Below are positions 1 to 14,390 of a stretch of 14,890 nt of DNA, in pieces. Source of the DNA: Escherichia coli (GTDB taxonomy: Bacteria; Pseudomonadota; Gammaproteobacteria; Enterobacterales; Enterobacteriaceae); the NCBI RefSeq assembly GCF_003334255.1, contig NZ_QOWU01000078.1, one strand, 5' to 3'. The notes under the pieces are model-generated. The model ran no database searches and was not told the DNA's origin. It saw only the letters and a list, made by a program, of their open reading frames with translations. The position numbers were made by a program, and so were the translations under genes. Position 1 is the first letter of the stretch, and each line of letters begins with the position of its first letter.

Positions 1-105
1 ACGCGAGGCATCGTCTTAACGAGGCACCGAGGCGTCGCATTCTTCAGATGGTTCAACCCTTAAGTTAGCGCTTATGGGACTTCCCCCCCTGATAATGCCT
101 GATAT

Positions 106-1650
106 TTACAGGTGTACTTCATCAATGTCTAACAATGACTTTTGAAGCACTTCAAAGACTGAACTATGGTCAAAGTCTTTGTTTTCTCGTGCAACTGAAA
201 TACCAGAGAAAGATTTACCATTCAATAAGCGTATAGTTATTTCTTGCTTGTAGTAGTCAAAAATCATCTCTTTGATAAATGACTTTATGGCAAGTTGTAG
301 TTTGATACGTCCCTCTACAGTTTTCCGGTCACTGTCTTGGATATCATTGTCTGACCTTAATGACTGGATAGCTTCAGCCTGTCTTAAATCCTTCTTCTTA
401 GATTCAAGTTCAACACGGTTGTTTGTTATTCTTTGGGCTAATGTGTCAAGGTCACCCAATCCTCTTTCTGCAAGGCTAATTAGGTTATTAATCCCTTTTT
501 CTAGTGATGTGATATCGGCTTTAAGCGTGGTAACAGAAATATTGTCACCATTACTCTTAAGGCTCAGATACTGAAGTGTGGGGAATACCTTTTGAATGAG
601 TATATCTTCAATCAATGAACGGTTAAATGCCTTAGAATTACAACGTCCAAGTTGACGATTACGACATTCAAGATAGCCTCTAGGGTAGCGTCCTTCTGGT
701 GTCTTCTTGGTATTACGCTGACGCAGTGTAGAACCACATTCTGCACACTTGCATATCCCTTTAAAGATATCAATAGAACTTGGTTGTCGTGAGGTTGGCT
801 TCTTGCCTTTGCCTTGACCTCTAATCATCTGTACGGCATGAAACTTTTCTTTTGAAATAGCAGGGGGGAAATAGTCACTGACTCCGTAAGCAACGCCAAT
901 TAGAGACTCCTTTAATAAAAGGTCACGTACTCTTGTAGGTGTCCAGCCTGTGTCTACCTTTTTATTCGTAATGGTGGGGATGTTTTCAAGATTTAAATCT
1001 CTGGCGATTGCATGTAGTGATTTTCCTGAAAGTTTTTCGTCAAAGATTCTATGAATTGTTTCTACGTGGTGAGGTATTAACGAAAATGATTTTCCGTCAG
1101 AATTGAGTTTTAACCATCCGGGGCAATTACCGGTTATCTTTGTTCCATCCTGTTCAAACTGTTGTCGTTTATGTGACCATACCTTTTTAATACGGTCAGA
1201 TTTAATAACAGACTCGTTATGGCTACGCTCTTGTAGGATAATCATTCTGATTAATGCGAGAGAATCATCAAGAGATTGGCGGTTATACGTTTCACCGTCG
1301 CTTAGAGTGACAACCGTAATACCTTGCTCAAGAATAGCCCTGATAGTTTCCTGTGCATGGCTGATTGACTGACGGCTTACACGGTCTAACGATTCCACCA
1401 GCAAGACAGAATCTGGCGGTATCAGACCTTGCTTAACAGCTTCAAGAAAAGCCCTGAGTGCTCCACCTTCTTTTAGATGGTCACCGTGAAAGGCTGAACG
1501 ACCTAAATCTTCAAAACTAAGAGATTCGTCTAGGATGTGGTCTGGATGGCTGGCTAACCAATCCTGTATGGCCTTACTCTGTCTTCGATGACTATCACCA
1601 AAAGCTTGTTTCGTTGACGAAAAGCGAATGTAACTGTAAACCTTCCTCAT
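106..1650 (-). CDS. Large serine recombinase (serine integrase; resolvase-type catalytic domain + recombinase domain + zinc ribbon + C-terminal coiled coil)
   Basis: 514-aa ORF. N-terminus YIRFSSTKQ fits the resolvase/invertase catalytic serine motif. A Cys cluster (CKCAECGS...YLECRNRQLGRCNS) fits the zinc-ribbon domain, and the C-terminus is heptad-rich and coiled-coil-like. An in-frame stop lies 6 codons upstream of the ATG, and there is no clear Shine-Dalgarno sequence. Confidence 0.85.
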   Translation of the reverse strand: MRKVYSYIRFSSTKQAFGDSHRRQSKAIQDWLASHPDHILDESLSFEDLGRSAFHGDHLKEGGALRAFLEAVKQGLIPPDSVLLVESLDRVSRQSISHAQETIRAILEQGITVVTLSDGETYNRQSLDDSLALIRMIILQERSHNESVIKSDRIKKVWSHKRQQFEQDGTKITGNCPGWLKLNSDGKSFSLIPHHVETIHRIFDEKLSGKSLHAIARDLNLENIPTITNKKVDTGWTPTRVRDLLLKESLIGVAYGVSDYFPPAISKEKFHAVQMIRGQGKGKKPTSRQPSSIDIFKGICKCAECGSTLRQRNTKKTPEGRYPRGYLECRNRQLGRCNSKAFNRSLIEDILIQKVFPTLQYLSLKSNGDNISVTTLKADITSLEKGINNLISLAERGLGDLDTLAQRITNNRVELESKKKDLRQAEAIQSLRSDNDIQDSDRKTVEGRIKLQLAIKSFIKEMIFDYYKQEITIRLLNGKSFSGISVARENKDFDHSSVFEVLQKSLLDIDEVHL

Positions 1651-1668
1651 CTGTATATTTATCCAGTA
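1649..1668. promoter_or_regulatory. Candidate LexA (SOS) box abutting the recombinase start codon
   Basis: The plus strand reads CTGTATATTTATCCAG (CTG-N10-CAG, AT-rich spacer), 13/16 identical to the dinB SOS box core. On the minus strand it reads TACTGGATAAATATACAG immediately followed by the ATG. Confidence 0.45.
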
Positions 1669-1704
1669 CTATAATGACTCTATGACCAGATTATAAGGGG
1701 TGTT

Positions 1705-1734
1705 TTAGGAAGTGAAAATCATGATTTTACGCAT
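1705..1734 (-). pseudogene. dinB: dinB (DNA polymerase IV) 5' end, truncated: 14 nt of dinB (ATGCGTAAAATCAT) fused to element DNA, giving a 9-codon ORF (MRKIMIFTS*)
   Basis: The minus strand reads GAGGTGAGCA-ATGCGTAAAATCAT, matching the recalled dinB ribosome-binding site and start (MRKI from MRKIIHVDMD...). The sequence diverges after codon 4 and hits TAA at codon 10. Confidence 0.7.
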
Positions 1735-1750
1735 TGCTCACCTCTCAACA

Positions 1751-1770
1751 CTGGTAAAGTATACAGTGAT
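1751..1770. promoter_or_regulatory. dinB: dinB promoter LexA box
   Basis: The minus strand reads CACTGTATACTTTACCAGTG, identical to the recalled dinB SOS operator, about 16 bp upstream of the dinB ATG at 1734. Confidence 0.8.
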
Positions 1771-1804
1771 TTCAGGGTTTGAGAAATGCGTAAAGATTCA
1801 GCAT

Positions 1805-2560
1805 TTAACGCGTTCGCTGCGAAAGCACCTGCTGCTTATCCAGCTTTTGCACCAGCGGCTGCACCACTTTATCCCCATGCTGACCAAAGTATTGATACAG
1901 CGTATCGGACGCACTTTTGGTCAGCACCATAATCTCAATGCGCCGGTTGCCCGCGCTTTGCGGATTTTTGGAATCCAGCAGCATCTGGTCCGCCATTGCG
2001 CTTACCTGCATCACTTTATCTTCCGGCATTCCGGCCTCTTCCAGCACCCGACGAGCCGAAAGCGCGCGGTCACCCGAAAGGTTCCAGTTGTTGTAGATAT
2101 TGTTTTTGTAGGCCATCGCATCGGTATGCCCGGTAATAATAATTTTATTATCGAGCGAGTCGAACACTGGCGCGAGCTCCACCAGCAGCGTTTTAAAGAA
2201 CGGCATAATCTTCGCGCTGCCGCGTTCAAACATATTGCGGTTCTGGTCGTCTTTAATCAGCACGCGTAATCCCTGGGGAACAATCTCCATCTCCAGATTC
2301 GCTTCCATATGCGCATCACGGGCAATGGTGTTGATACTGGTTGCCAGCTCACCAAGCTCGGTGGCGGATTTCTTCTTCAGCAGCGCCGTTTTCTCATTCA
2401 CATCACGCGCTTTTTTCTCCGTCTCTTCCGGCACCGCCACGGTGGCAGGTTTTGGCGGATGAGACGGGCTGATTTTATTTAACGGCGACAGCCCACCACC
2501 GTTAAAAATCGACTGCCCGTGCAGCGCGGCGATAATGCTTTCACGCTCGGATTTACTGAC
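1805..2560 (-). pseudogene. lafU: lafU remnant (MotB-like lateral flagellar motor protein, N-terminally truncated Flag-2 relic)
   Basis: The translation has a MotB/OmpA-like C-terminal domain (NWNLSGDRALSARRVLEE...RRIEIMVL) but lacks the N-terminal transmembrane helix. The six-frame ORF extends to 2695 only by reading antisense through lfhA. Position between lfhA and PdinB matches K-12. Confidence 0.75.
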
Positions 2561-4274
2561 GCTGTTGACAATCAACTTTATTGTCGTCACCAAAGGGGCC
2601 GAGCGTATTTCCGAGGTTTCTGCCCGCTTTACCTTAGACGCGATGCCCGGCAAACAGATGGCGATTGACGCCGATCTTAACGCCGGATTGATCAACCAGG
2701 CGCAGGCGCAAACCCGGCGTAAAGATGTTGCCAGCGAGGCCGATTTCTACGGCGCGATGGACGGGGCATCGAAGTTTGTGCGCGGGGACGCCATCGCCGG
2801 GATGATGATTCTGGCGATCAACCTGATCGGCGGCGTCTGTATCGGGATCTTCAAATACAACCTGAGCGCCGATGCTGCCTTCCAGCAGTATGTGCTGATG
2901 ACCATCGGCGACGGCCTGGTGGCGCAGATCCCTTCCCTGCTGCTCTCCACCGCGGCGGCGATTATCGTCACCCGCGTCAGCGACAACGGCGATATCGCCC
3001 ATGACGTGCGTAACCAGCTGCTGGCAAGCCCGTCGGTGCTCTACACCGCCACCGGGATTATGTTCGTGCTGGCGGTGGTACCGGGAATGCCGCACCTGCC
3101 GTTTTTGCTGTTCAGCGCCCTGCTTGGTTTTACCGGCTGGCGGATGAGCAAACAGCCGCTGGCGGCGGAGGCGGAAGAGAAAAGCCTCGAAACGCTGACC
3201 CGCACCATCACCGAAACCAGCGAGCAGCAGGTCAGTTGGGAAACCATTCCGCTGATCGAGCCTATCAGTTTAAGCCTCGGTTACAAACTGGTGGCGCTGG
3301 TGGACAAAGCACAGGGTAACCCGCTCACCCAGCGGATTCGCGGCGTGCGGCAGGTGATTTCTGACGGCAACGGCGTGCTGCTGCCGGAGATCCGCATTCG
3401 GGAAAACTTCCGCCTTAAGCCCAGTCAGTACGCCATTTTCATCAACGGCATAAAGGCTGATGAAGCGGATATTCCGGCGGATAAACTGATGGCCCTGCCC
3501 TCCAGCGAAACCTACGGCGAGATTGACGGCGTGCAGGGGAACGACCCGGCGTACGGGATGCCGGTCACCTGGATCCAGGCGGCGCAGAAAGCGAAGGCGC
3601 TGAATATGGGGTATCAGGTGATCGACAGCGCCAGCGTGATCGCTACCCATGTAAATAAGATTGTGCGCAGCTATATTCCTGATTTGTTTAACTATGATGA
3701 TATTACGCAGTTGCATAACCGTTTATCGTCGACGGCACCGCGTCTGGCGGAAGATTTGAGCGCGGCGCTCAATTACAGCCAGTTGCTGAAAGTGTACCGG
3801 GCGCTGCTGACCGAAGGCGTTTCCCTGCGCGATATCGTCACCATCGCCACCGTGCTGGTCGCCAGTAGCACGGTGACGAAAGATCATATTCTGCTGGCGG
3901 CCGATGTGCGCCTGGCATTGCGGCGCAGCATTACCCATCCGTTCGTTCGCAAGCAGGAGCTGACGGTGTATACGCTGAATAATGAGCTGGAAAATCTGCT
4001 GACCAACGTGGTGAATCAGGCGCAACAGGGCGGGAAAGTGATGCTCGACAGCGTGCCGGTCGATCCGAATATGCTCAACCAGTTCCAGAGTACGATGCCA
4101 CAGGTGAAAGAGCAGATGAAAGCGGCGGGGAAAGACCCGGTGCTGCTGGTGCCACCGCAGCTGCGCCCTTTGCTGGCGCGTTATGCAAGGTTGTTTGCGC
4201 CGGGGCTGCATGTGCTGTCGTATAACGAAGTGCCGGATGAGCTGGAGTTGAAGATTATGGGGGCGTTGATGTAA
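2535..4274 (+). pseudogene. lfhA: lfhA remnant (FlhA-family flagellar export apparatus protein, N-terminally truncated Flag-2 relic)
   Basis: 579-aa ORF with FlhA-family motifs (VVTKGAERISEVSARFTLDAMPGKQMAIDADLNAGLI) that begins inside the conserved transmembrane region, so about 100+ N-terminal residues are missing. Length matches the recalled K-12 lfhA fragment. Confidence 0.8.
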
Positions 4275-4297
4275 GTATCCAGCATTGGTGCACAACT

Positions 4298-4487
4298 GCC
4301 GGATGCGGCGTGAACGCCTTATCCGTCCTACCGTTCAGGCACAAGTTTGTAGGCATGATAAGACGCGCCAGCGTCGCATCAGGCATCTGCGCATAACTGC
4401 CGGATGCGGCATAAACGCCTTATCCGGCCTACCGATCCGGCACAAGTTTGTAGGCATGATAAGACGCGCTAGCGTCGCATCAGGCAT
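4298..4487. repeat. BIME: four REP (repetitive extragenic palindromic) units in alternating orientation
   Basis: GCCGGATGCGGCGTGAACGCCTTATCCGTCCTAC (4298-4331) and GCCGGATGCGGCATAAACGCCTTATCCGGCCTAC (4399-4432) alternate with GTAGGCATGATAAGACGCGCCAGCGTCGCATCAGGCAT (4349-4386, 4450-4487). These are canonical E. coli REP sequences. Confidence 0.85.
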
Positions 4488-4497
4488 CTGCGCACAA

Positions 4498-4995
4498 TTA
4501 TGAAATGATACGCTCCCCGGCACTAAAATCCGTTACGTCCCCCGCCCAATCGATGGGATATAACCCTCGCGCGACATCGCGATGGAACGTTGAGAATGGC
4601 CAATCACTCACTTGCTTTACCCAACCATGCTTTACTGGATTTATATAAATATAATCAACATGATGCCTATAATCTTTGGTATTGCGGATGGCGTGCTCCC
4701 AAAAACGTGGTTGCCAGATATTTTTCAATCCACAAGCATGGGTAAATTGCTTTTTAATTTCCCGCCAGCGCGAGGAAAAATCATCATCGCCTTCAGGTAA
4801 TGTCCAGATACAGTGCATATGCTCTGGCAAAACGACCCAGGCGTTGATTTCAAAAGGCCTGTCTCGCTTAACTTTAATAATGGCGTGACGGAGCATCTGG
4901 TACTGGGTGGTCAAAAGTTGGCTTCGACGATTTCGTAAATTCACCGTGAAAAACCATGTTCCCCCCTTGATGTAATAACGACGATATTCAGACAT
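4498..4995 (-). CDS. rayT: REP-associated tyrosine transposase RayT (TnpA-REP, HuH family; IS200/IS605-like)
   Basis: 165-aa ORF matching recalled RayT/YafM (MSEYRRYYIKGGTWFFTVNL...), with the HuH motif (PEHMHCIW) and REP arrays on both sides. Confidence 0.9.
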   Translation of the reverse strand: MSEYRRYYIKGGTWFFTVNLRNRRSQLLTTQYQMLRHAIIKVKRDRPFEINAWVVLPEHMHCIWTLPEGDDDFSSRWREIKKQFTHACGLKNIWQPRFWEHAIRNTKDYRHHVDYIYINPVKHGWVKQVSDWPFSTFHRDVARGLYPIDWAGDVTDFSAGERIIS

Positions 4996-5090
4996 GGCGA
5001 CTCCTTTTTCTCAACGGTAAGAAGAAAAGGAAAGGTTGGCAATGAGGTTGTTTTATATCGGGAAAGCGGCTCGCAAATATTCGCGGGCTC

Positions 5091-5174
5091 GTAGGCATGA
5101 TAAGACGCGCCAGCGTCGCATCAGGCACCTGCGTACAACTGCCGGATGCGGCGTAAACGCCTTATCCGTCCTAC
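5091..5174. repeat. REP pair (BIME) on the other flank of rayT
   Basis: GTAGGCATGATAAGACGCGCCAGCGTCGCATCAGGCA (5091-5127) and GCCGGATGCGGCGTAAACGCCTTATCCGTCCTAC (5141-5174), in inverted arrangement relative to the 4298-4487 array. Confidence 0.8.
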
Positions 5175-5920
5175 AAAATCGTCTCTTCCGTCAAAATCCT
5201 GCGCGCGCCCAAAAAATGGTCCTGCCAGAAAGGTTCGGCTAATCGGCTTATCCGAATGGTTTCGCCGGTACGTGGCGACTCGATAAATTGCCCATCGCCC
5301 AAATACACGCCCATATGATCGGCTATCTCGCGGCTGTGGATATGGAAAAACAGCAAATCTCCCCGGCGCAGGTCGTTGTTCGCCACAATCGTTGCCCGGC
5401 GATAGTGGTACATCTCATTGGCCGTGCGCGGGAGCTTAGCCTCAAGGATCTTGTTGTAGGCATAAAAAACCAACCCGCTACAGTCAAAGCCTTTATCAGG
5501 CCGCGTACCGCCCCAGACGTAAGGCTTGCCAAGCTGCTGCTCCAGGCGGTGAATCGCCACTTCGGTAATGTTATGCAGATGGTCGCTGCTTAAAAAGTGG
5601 TTGTTTTCCGCCAGCGCCTGCCAGCGTCTGTCACTCGCCTTGAGCGGAGCAGGAAACCATTCTGGATGCTGTTTTATCTGCTCCCGGTTGTGCTGGCGTA
5701 GCGCCCTTTTGCTTTCGGCATTGCCTTCCACAATATAGCTGGCCTGCTTTTTCAGATGAGTTTGGTACTGTTTTAATAAACGCGCACGGTTTTGCATCCG
5801 CTGGCGGGCGGCGTAGCTGAAAGAGATATGTGATGTGGTGGCGCTGGCAAATGAAGAAAACGGCAAACAAATCAACAGTAATCCCGACAATACAAAGGAT
5901 GGAATCGACGGCAAGGACAT
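5171..5920 (-). CDS. yafL: NlpC/P60-family putative peptidoglycan endopeptidase/lipoprotein YafL
   Basis: The ORF 5171..5980 contains MSLPSIPSFVLSGLLLICLPF... from codon 21, giving 249 aa as recalled for K-12 YafL. The NlpC/P60 Cys motif (DCSGLV) and His are present. The start is chosen by homology, not by ribosome-binding-site analysis. Confidence 0.85.
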   Translation of the reverse strand: MSLPSIPSFVLSGLLLICLPFSSFASATTSHISFSYAARQRMQNRARLLKQYQTHLKKQASYIVEGNAESKRALRQHNREQIKQHPEWFPAPLKASDRRWQALAENNHFLSSDHLHNITEVAIHRLEQQLGKPYVWGGTRPDKGFDCSGLVFYAYNKILEAKLPRTANEMYHYRRATIVANNDLRRGDLLFFHIHSREIADHMGVYLGDGQFIESPRTGETIRISRLAEPFWQDHFLGARRILTEETIL

Positions 5921-6392: not shown

Positions 6393-6671
6393 ATGATTCA
6401 AAGGGATATTGAATACTCGGGACAATATTCAAAGGATGTAAAACTTGCACAAAAGCGTCATAAGGATATGAATAAATTGAAATATCTTATGACGCTTCTT
6501 ATCAATAATACTTTACCGCTTCCAGCTGTTTATAAAGACCACCCGCTGCAAGGTTCATGGAAAGGTTATCGCGATGCTCATGTCGAACCGGACTGGATCC
6601 TGATTTACAAACTTACCGATAAACTTTTACGATTTGAGAGAACTGGAACTCACGCGGCGCTCTTTGGGTAA
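6393..6671 (+). CDS. yafQ: Toxin YafQ (RelE/YafQ ribosome-dependent mRNA interferase)
   Basis: 92-aa ORF matching recalled YafQ (MIQRDIEYSGQYSKDVKLAQKRHKD...), in operon arrangement with dinJ. Confidence 0.95.
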   Translation: MIQRDIEYSGQYSKDVKLAQKRHKDMNKLKYLMTLLINNTLPLPAVYKDHPLQGSWKGYRDAHVEPDWILIYKLTDKLLRFERTGTHAALFG

Positions 6672-13253: not shown

Positions 13254-14390
13254 CTACGAAAGCCCGCTCCCCGCAAGGACTGACGCCAGGTAGTTTCTGT
13301 CCATGGCTGCTTTTCGCATCTTACGTCTTAACCCTGCCTTGAATACCTTCTCATTCGTCAAAATATTAATAGCAATGTGCCGTATCCCTGAAAATAATTC
13401 TGCTGCGTTTCCTCTTCTTATTTTGTAGTCGTCTTCATTCATTACCACGTCCAGACGCCTGTGCAGCTTATTCTCCACGTGCCAGTGGTTTCGGATTGCT
13501 GTGGCGAACTTCTCTGCGGTTAAATCAGCAGAACTGATATAATATCTGACCGTCATTTCGAGCTCTTTCTTTTGTTCTGCTATTATGGACCGAAAGGAGA
13601 CTGCCACGCATAATTTCTTCAGCCCTTTCCATTCAAACGTGAAATCAATAAGTTCATCAGGGACATCGCAAACAATATGAAGACGGATTTCTTCTCTGCC
13701 GTGACTCTTTTCACTCATTGCGTAACTGTCATGCTCTGGATTATTTAATTCTTTCAGCGGAAATTTTTCCTCAAAGGCTTTATTTAGCCGCCCCTGGTTT
13801 CCTTTTACCGCGAATAAATAATCACCTCCCTGTTTTTGTATCTTCTCTGCAATATCTTTCTGGCAACCCATCGCATCAGTTGTGATGATTTTTCCTTTAA
13901 TATCCAGCATGTTAAGAAGTTCAGGGATAGCTGTAATCTCATTGGATTTCTCATCCGTCCTGATCTGTCCGATGACCAGACTGTGCATTGTTGAGAACGC
14001 ACTAATGACATGAATCGCTCCCTTGCGGCGACTCTTGTCATAAGAATGCCGGAGTGTTTTTCCATCAATTGCGATGACGTCTTTATCATCTGAAGTATGG
14101 CAATCTCGCATCCAGTTAATAAAGCACTCGTGAAATTTTGAAGGACTGATACAGGATACAACTCTGGCGATGGTATCGTGAACAGGAATACCATTTTCAA
14201 AATCACCATATTGTTTTAAAAAATCGAGATGTGTTTCCCCAAAATCCTCTATATCTTCCCAGCCTTCTGCACCAGAAATAACGGCACAAATAGTCAACAG
14301 TAGAATATCCGATAATTTATGTTCCACTTTCCAGGCTTGTCTGTAATCGGGGATAATAGAAATATGTTCCATCAATTTTTTAAGTTCCAT
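13254..14390 (-). CDS. ISAs1-family transposase (H-repeat-associated ORF-H protein), apparently intact
   Basis: 378-aa ORF closely resembling E. coli H-repeat proteins (YhhI/YdcC/YbfD family). The K-12 equivalent position is recalled to hold only a short remnant (yafF). The IS ends were not delimited. Confidence 0.85.

Follow-up and report, generated by a model that had tools for sequence, protein, structure and literature searches.

Two truncated Flag-2 genes lie head-to-head

We analysed a 14,890-nucleotide stretch of Escherichia coli DNA (hereafter the window; contig NZ_QOWU01000078.1 of RefSeq assembly GCF_003334255.1), in which positions 1805-4274 hold what remains of two genes of the Flag-2 lateral-flagella cluster: lafU (mbhA), which is MotB-like, and lfhA (fhiA), which is FlhA-like. 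Their coordinates, with those of the adjoining features, are collected in Table 1. The open reading frames (ORFs) listed for the window include one of 296 residues at 1805..2695 on the minus strand and one of 579 residues at 2535..4274 on the plus strand, the same coordinates as in a preliminary description of this DNA, made from the letters alone, which had taken the pair for the scar of a deletion inside the Flag-2 cluster.

Table 1. Features at and beside the lafU-lfhA junction, in window coordinates
Feature	Position	Strand	Remarks
Native lafU-dinB spacer	1721..1804	-	1721-1734 is the reverse complement of dinB nt 1-14
lafU (mbhA) remnant	1805..2573	-	LafU residues 53-307 of 307, with stop codon at 1805-1807
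Spurious 12-codon N-terminal lfhA ORF extension (MLSRSDLLTLLT)	2535..2570	+	Antisense lafU; ATG at 2535
Deletion junction	2571..2573		ATC, the only stretch exactly common to both parental sequences
lfhA (fhiA) remnant	2571..4274	+	LfhA residues 131-697 of 697, with stop codon
Spurious N-terminal lafU ORF extension	2574..2695	-	Antisense lfhA; longest ORF starts at TTG 2695
Repeats between lfhA and rayT	4285..4495		Two ~101-nt units, 4290-4393 and 4391-4494, 93% alike
rayT (yafM)	4498..4995	-	Usual right neighbour of the scar in K-12-like strains

As intact reference we used E. coli 74-2 (NZ_CP050044.1) instead of strain 042; its complete Flag-2 cluster occupies this site, between dinB and rayT, and encodes a LafU of 307 and an LfhA of 697 residues. 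Against this reference, window 1805-2573 corresponds to lafU nt 156-924, base 2573 being the final base of the Trp52 codon, and LafU residues 1-52, which include GAWKVAFADFTLAMMALFMTLW and contain the membrane helix, the plug, the conserved Asp region and the AFADF motif, are missing. The lafU-derived sequence (1808-2572, minus strand) matches the NCBIfam LafU equivalog NF005273 with E=6.9e-143 over profile positions 43-297 of 297, and at 475 bits it stays above the model cut-off of 383. Truncated LafU proteins in the database match PF00691 only, whereas full-length LafU matches both PF13677 (MotB_plug) and PF00691; the membrane helix with its Asp and the plug, which mark a functional MotB/LafU stator protein, are absent from the remnant.

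The loss is larger on the other side. Window 2571-4274 corresponds to lfhA nt 391-2094 of 74-2, with 2 differences over 1704 nt, and LfhA residues 1-130, comprising N-terminal membrane helices, are missing: nothing remains of the hydrophobic segments in residues ~7-66, and the one that begins at ~108 is cut at residue 131. Matched to the FlhA model TIGR01398, the lfhA-derived sequence (2571-4271, plus strand) gives E=5e-178 over profile positions 118-677 of 678 and a score of 593.5 bits, below the curated cut-off of 772.1, which intact LfhA passes with 774.7 bits. A functional FlhA/SctV (FHIPEP) protein would have a complete N-terminal membrane domain and a score above that cut-off, and the remnant has neither. 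Because intact LafU and LfhA of 74-2 cover both profiles from the start, the two N-terminal truncations are, on these alignments, real and far beyond chance, as the preliminary description had held; the intact genes are indeed the longer ones.

One element of that description needs correction. The overlap at 2535-2560, which it had read as one between the truncated 5' ends, is not a homologous overlap; each ORF simply reads on into the antisense strand of the other remnant. The same effect is seen in the RefSeq/PGAP call for lafU, which runs over 1805..2590 from a GTG at 2590 (VTTIKL, followed by IVNSVSK) and whose first 6 residues are antisense lfhA. This fragment is annotated as an ordinary 261-residue protein-coding gene (WP_000207552.1 in K-12, for example) because it still scores above the LafU model cut-off, and only the lfhA fragment is flagged as a pseudogene.

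The genes that stood upstream of both remnants in their operons are gone, and with them the remnants have probably lost their native operon promoters; a promoter scan returned weak consensus matches only, one of them promoter-like at 2509-2536 (+). Because the essential N-termini and the rest of the flagellar apparatus are gone, and probably the native operon promoters too, the locus is best read as a pseudogene pair that would contribute nothing to motility.

One deletion joins lafU to lfhA

Alignment to 74-2 resolves the locus into two collinear arms. The left arm (window 1721-2573) matches the start of dinB and lafU at 98.2% identity, and the right arm (window 2562-4500) matches lfhA and rayT at 99.7%. 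In the intact locus these arms lie 36,095 bp apart, and that interval is missing from the window: no Flag-2 gene stands between the head-to-head fragments, the other ~40 Flag-2 genes are absent from the window altogether, and the arms share 3 exact nucleotides at 2571-2573. The interior of the cluster has therefore been lost between its two outward-facing terminal genes, as the preliminary description had supposed.

A megablast search of window 1651-4500 against 5426 complete E. coli genomes located the scar region in K-12 MG1655 with the same neighbours, where it is annotated as lafU and a 5'-truncated FlhA pseudogene. Both remnants are 100% identical to K-12 fhiA/mbhA (0 differences over 768 nt and 1704 nt), an 80-nt junction probe (window 2533-2612) is likewise 100% identical in MG1655, and window and K-12 share the order dinB-lafU'-lfhA'-rayT-yafL-dinJ-yafQ. 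Within the chromosomal slot between dinB and rayT/yafL, the right side is K-12-like, and the left side has 14 nt of dinB and the spacer before a foreign island begins. On this evidence window 1805-4274 is almost certainly the Flag-2 deletion scar known in E. coli K-12 as fhiA-mbhA, the match that the preliminary description had drawn, and we found nothing that speaks against it. It is scarcely credible that the two ORFs are instead independent short FlhA/MotB paralogues or an artefact of assembly, for neither of which anything was found: the arms are collinear with, and 98-99.9% identical to, the terminal genes at the same site of the intact locus, and the junction is present in 4086 independently assembled complete genomes.

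Comparing the window base by base with three intact alleles of each gene, lafU and lfhA, fixed the junction, which was also examined in three-way alignments against four intact lafU or lfhA alleles. On the lafU side the parental sequence reads ...GTTGACAATC up to the junction and CACAGC beyond it, and on the lfhA side ...GATGATCATC and then AACTTT; in the base-by-base alignment the lafU side is ...GCTGTTGACAATC before CACAGC, the lfhA side ...CTGATGATCATC before AACTTT, and the window ...GCTGTTGACAATCAACTTT. At ATC, a single deletion has brought lafU nt 156 against lfhA nt 391, giving the canonical junction ...GACAATCAACTTT.... Comparison with a Flag-2-positive genome, which the preliminary description had proposed, thus defines the endpoints; the microhomology lies at 2571-2573, however, and not within 2530-2560, where it had been expected.

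This microhomology is ordinary. ATC sits within an imperfect 15-nt direct repeat (11/15), but 511 pairs of lafU and lfhA 15-mers score at least 11/15 within one intact locus, so that the repeat is no better than chance; lafU and lfhA also share exact direct repeats as long as 11 nt, and alignment to the intact locus revealed no extended homology between the two breakpoints. In the summary of Ren et al. (2005) given by De Maayer et al. (2020; PMC6993521), the deletion falls within both reading frames and has direct repeats at its ends. Thus lfhA and lafU, the outermost, outward-facing genes of the cluster, have been joined head-to-head, we suggest by a single illegitimate (short-homology) recombination, with the removal of ~36 kb that held the 5' end of each gene and the roughly 40 flagellar genes that separated them. 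Because the microhomology is ordinary, a generic deletion driven by it is not expected to pick the same nucleotides repeatedly, a point that matters for the history of the junction considered below.

Scar and intact alleles are interleaved in E. coli

Across the same 5426 genomes, the junction probe matches at full length in 4086, the deleted 5' segment of lfhA is present in 1291 and the interior gene lfiI in 1279; the scar and intact states are complementary, and 99% of the genomes have one or the other. Ren et al. (2005), as reported in PMC6993521, found the deletion in all 76 Flag-2-negative strains among 100 E. coli. Because the same junction occurs in three quarters of the genomes searched and in other genera, the presence of the scar places a strain only weakly, and the hope that it would reveal the strain background holds only for the K-12-identical allele, which is informative. 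The window itself is not from K-12, because an island is inserted in dinB.

We then compared ten scar-bearing E. coli, representing seven distinct alleles, with five intact alleles. Every scar remnant keeps an open frame, free of indels and stops, although the lfhA' sequences differ at up to 109 of 1704 nt. Synonymous divergence (dS) reaches 0.28 among E. coli, and the ratio of non-synonymous to synonymous divergence (dN/dS) is 0.015-0.065 for scars and 0.023-0.060 for intact genes. Scar and intact alleles are interleaved: scar-bearing strain GB089 equals intact strain 93_0495 over all 1704 nt of lfhA, scar-bearing strain S1-INA-02-A equals intact 74-2 at 853/853 nt on the lafU side, the differences between the two being 2/1704 nt for lfhA and 2/3226 nt for the sequence to its right, and a single-nucleotide polymorphism (SNP) 12 nt from the junction segregates among scar and intact alleles alike. 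Because the scars are open yet divergent, with a dN/dS like that of intact genes and alleles mixed among the intact ones, the divergence among E. coli scars is, to judge from these alleles, not post-deletion decay. The two lfhA differences between scar alleles and 74-2 were considered as a marker of shared scar ancestry and discarded, both being private to 74-2.

The locus is also a local peak of diversity. Between the window and GB089 (window 1805-5920), yafL differs by 7.1%, lfhA' by 4.65% and lafU' by 2.6%, against 0.3-1.7% in the neighbours dinJ, yafQ, dpaA, yafJ, lpcA, fadE and yafV. Intact lfhA alleles are visibly mosaic throughout, and no sharp recombination breakpoint, of the kind that re-acquisition would leave, was seen in them at lfhA nt 390/391.

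Several further observations concern the intact state. The lfiI gene (74-2 extract 34957-36294) falls into two deep allele classes in E. coli, with 563 genomes at ≥99% identity, 634 at 90-95% and few between, which suggests two old Flag-2 lineages within the species. The "intact" cluster of 74-2 is itself decaying: it has an internal stop in the rod-binding protein gene and an IS1 insertion (74-2 extract 21202-21501 and 29552-30249), and its lfhA carries two private non-synonymous changes, L439M and T544I. To the right of the scar, yafQ (6393-6671) is intact in the window and K-12, and an internal stop interrupts it in 74-2 and S1-INA-02-A alike. These two strains have the same yafL and dinJ proteins as well, and the shared features support a single haplotype there.

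The same junction occurs in other genera

When species-representative genomes were scanned with a peptide seed, 3 of 80 loci were close, the remainder being ordinary FlhA. Two were intact lfhB-lfhA in Citrobacter, and the third was a scar in the E. albertii type strain NBRC 107761, with the identical junction and 92% nucleotide identity to the window. This copy carries a 22-nt frameshifting deletion in lfhA' (extract 4430-4448), and its lafU' 3' end, near 2692-2762 of the extract, gives no alignment to window 1804-1831; no other scar that we examined is decayed. Carter et al. (2024; PMC11420993) described the same truncated locus, 2.5 kb long, in Flag-2-negative E. albertii, and De Maayer et al. 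(2020; PMC6993521) described similar lfhA-lafU deletions in other Enterobacterales, mainly in taxa that also hold intact loci.

Searching with a degenerate junction pattern built to exclude E. coli alleles identified further scars in two large Citrobacter metagenome contigs, which have the same junction and are ~79% identical to the window. One of them is 97.4% identical to intact C. werkmanii lfhA, beginning exactly at nt 391, and has the syntenic flanks crl-frsA-gpt-pepD-dinB. A protein search recovered truncated LafU with the chimeric start (antisense-lfhA TTIKL or KL, then IVNSVSK) from C. gillenii, C. amalonaticus, another Citrobacter, Kluyvera ascorbata, another Kluyvera, E. coli and E. 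albertii; for C. gillenii the junction is known at protein level only. Full-length LafU occurs in E. coli, in K. ascorbata and in strains that bear the label C. amalonaticus, and comparison of the DNA of K. ascorbata and C. amalonaticus scars with intact loci places the breakpoint at the same nucleotide. Scar and intact strains of K. ascorbata differ by 1.1% over 4.8 kb of shared flank, equal to the difference between two scar strains.

Recent introgression of the E. coli scar into Citrobacter does not account for this pattern: the flanks, compared by eye, are ~75-84% identical to E. coli up to the junction, and the Citrobacter flank is 97.4% identical to intact C. werkmanii from its first base.

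Between genera, scar lfhA' sequences have a dS of 1.0-1.4 and a dN/dS of 0.03-0.06 with all 567 codons open, and the 12 scar remnants examined from E. coli, Kluyvera and Citrobacter are all open and free of indels. Given open remnants and a dN/dS of 0.03-0.06 at dS ~1, these scars are not old pseudogenes left unrefreshed; judged by its codons, a pseudogene not refreshed since the common ancestor of these genera cannot look like this.

Such constraint might be thought to mean that the remnants are functional, with truncated LfhA (a partial membrane domain and the cytoplasmic domain) and/or LafU (the OmpA-like domain) expressed from new starts and selected as a two-gene module. Open frames and low dN/dS in all E. 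coli, Citrobacter and Kluyvera scars examined, the possible start codon that each ORF has gained beyond the junction, and the weak promoter-like match at 2509-2536 (+) would fit such a module. However, the remnants cluster with the intact alleles of their own species and not with one another (the window differs from intact 74-2 at 2/1704 nt, and from Kluyvera and Citrobacter scars by dS ~1), the start codons chosen by gene callers vary between taxa, LafU' has no membrane or export signal of any kind, and the E. albertii type strain has the frameshift and the altered lafU' 3' end described above. We therefore regard a selected function as very improbable.

An inherited junction is favoured over recurrent formation

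How could one junction be shared by genera whose scars resemble their own intact alleles? Most likely, though with less certainty than attaches to the identity of the scar, the junction arose once or rarely, has been inherited, and persists as a presence/absence polymorphism beside intact loci. Frequent recombination with intact alleles would keep overwriting the flanks of the scar up to the boundary of heterology, and we propose that the remnants look species-native and selectively constrained because their flanks are refreshed in this way. Ordinary microhomology, mosaic intact lfhA, interleaved alleles and the local diversity peak all support inheritance, as does the remark of De Maayer et al. 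that scars are found where intact loci occur (PMC6993521).

Several observations weigh against this account. The same junction stands within native, ~79%-diverged flanks in Citrobacter and Kluyvera, and a 157-nt junction alignment showed no E. coli-like tract beside the junction in Citrobacter. With native flanks in other genera, common descent needs either two states kept across genus splits, a persistence that would span dS ~1-1.4, or rare transfer between genera, which would need complete erasure of the foreign flanks. Within E. coli, S1-INA-02-A and 74-2 differ by 4 nt in 5.8 kb of flanks, as if one haplotype had changed state very recently, and this sits poorly with a single origin.

Alternatively, sequence-directed excision could have produced the canonical junction many times over, in separate events in E. 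coli, E. albertii, Citrobacter and Kluyvera. Two conserved sites coding for membrane helices would then be a deletion hot spot, acted on by a trans-acting recombinase or nuclease or prone to deletion through DNA structure, and each scar would be young, its remnants having had no time to decay. In favour of this reading, the junction is nucleotide-identical in three genera with native flanks up to the breakpoint; 12/12 remnants are open, with dN/dS in E. coli and between genera as among intact alleles; flanks are near-identical in the scar/intact pairs S1-INA-02-A and 74-2 and, on the lfhA side, GB089 and 93_0495; and the SNP 12 nt from the junction is common to both states.

An agent for such excision is harder to name. 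The lafU breakpoint in E. coli lies in the loop of a 9-bp inverted repeat (TGACGCTGT-N9-ACAGCGTCA), perfect in E. coli and C. amalonaticus, but a hairpin as the cause is weakened by Kluyvera, where the repeat is only 7/9 and the junction is the same. Excision mediated by RayT and REP elements is rejected, since rayT does not always adjoin the scar: GB089 has hicAB in its place, and in Kluyvera and C. amalonaticus, which also lack it there, no transposase-type gene stands next to lfhA'. The annotation of the Flag-2 cluster (74-2 locus) includes no recombinase gene, and inspection of the aligned breakpoint sequences by eye disclosed no transposon-like inverted ends on the excised segment, the only shared piece being ATAAACA, a consequence of Phe-Met and Phe-Ile codons. 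Between the two sites there is no more than 2-3 nt of exact identity and the chance-level 11/15 repeat, and, given what is established about short-homology deletion, slippage across 36 kb is mechanistically unlikely. We therefore consider recurrent formation a real but rather unlikely alternative, and on balance favour an inherited junction.

Flanking genes and mobile elements

On the left of the scar, homology to ordinary E. coli chromosomes ends at 1721. The native spacer beside lafU', which presumably holds the SOS promoter of dinB, is followed after dinB nt 14 by the island (window 76-1720), which encodes a 514-residue large serine recombinase (gene 106-1650, minus strand). In GB089 the island is ~11.5 kb long and has, in addition, a second recombinase and genes for tape-measure and baseplate proteins. 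In that strain dinB restarts as GTG AAG ATT ATT and is separated from the native SOS promoter beside lafU', because the island integrated after dinB nt 14. The recombinase is found at full length in only 26/5426 genomes, and it is 100% identical between the window and GB089 while the adjoining lafU' alleles are 2.6% diverged, from which the island appears to have moved recently.

Window 1-75 is the end of an insertion sequence (IS) of the IS4-family IS421/IS186 type, an element present in 2144 genomes (median 3 and up to 22 copies, on chromosomes and plasmids). The insertion lies ~30 nt past the 3' end of the recombinase gene, in a G-run/C-run site (GGGACTTCCCCCCC) whose GB089 counterpart is uninterrupted.

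On the right, the repeats between lfhA and rayT are presumably of the REP/BIME type, going by the REP consensus. Strains differ in what lies between lfhA and yafL, some having rayT with REP repeats and others a hicAB toxin-antitoxin pair. Beyond yafV, window 13254-14390 (minus strand) encodes an intact 378-residue ISAs1-family (H-repeat-associated) transposase, the GB089 copy of which has an internal stop and is 3.7% diverged.

Significance and comparison with known systems

The scar re-identified here is the textbook fhiA-mbhA, present in 75% of E. coli, and in itself matters little. It has been treated in published accounts (PMC3032704, PMC6993521, PMC11420993), and the K-12 pseudogene pair goes back to Ren et al. 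(2005), as cited in PMC3032704 and PMC6993521. Its modest interest is raised somewhat by the identity of the junction across genera together with the undecayed remnants, a combination not spelled out in the published accounts that we found, Ren et al. (2005) being represented there at second hand. For annotation, it is of use to know that RefSeq names as a gene a 261-residue lafU fragment with a chimeric N-terminus.

The noteworthy pattern is one breakpoint with a 3-nt microhomology in at least three genera, with native, constrained-looking remnants, in taxa that also have intact loci. If the junction forms recurrently, this would imply an unrecognised mechanism of precise excision for a 36-kb surface-organelle locus, and the loss of Flag-2 would be no one-off accident of E. 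coli. If it is inherited, as we favour, it would represent an unusually long-lived (balanced) presence/absence polymorphism across genus splits, with flanks rewritten from intact alleles, and would offer a natural system in which to measure how recombination refreshes pseudogenes.

Among known systems, the closest is K-12 fhiA-mbhA (b0229-b0230), with identical remnants, an identical junction probe and the same right neighbours rayT, yafL and dinJ-yafQ. It differs in that dinB adjoins lafU' in K-12, whereas in the window the serine-recombinase island with its IS421/IS186-type insertion intervenes after dinB nt 14. The intact Flag-2 cluster of strains 042, W and 74-2 occupies the same site between dinB and rayT, and the terminal genes of 74-2 match the window remnants at 98.2% on the lafU side and 99.7-99.9% on the lfhA side; the intact locus has an additional 36,095 bp, comprising ~40 flagellar genes and the 5' ends of lfhA and lafU. 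The scars of E. albertii and other Enterobacterales contain the same two fragments head-to-head, with the junction at the same nucleotide in E. albertii NBRC 107761, Citrobacter and K. ascorbata, but have species-native flanks and only 92% (E. albertii) or ~79% (Citrobacter) identity to the window. A last parallel is ETT2, likewise ancestral, a degenerate second type III secretion cluster of which most E. coli retain only deletion remnants: ETT2 appears to show many deletion forms between strains, whereas the loss of Flag-2 comes down to essentially one junction.

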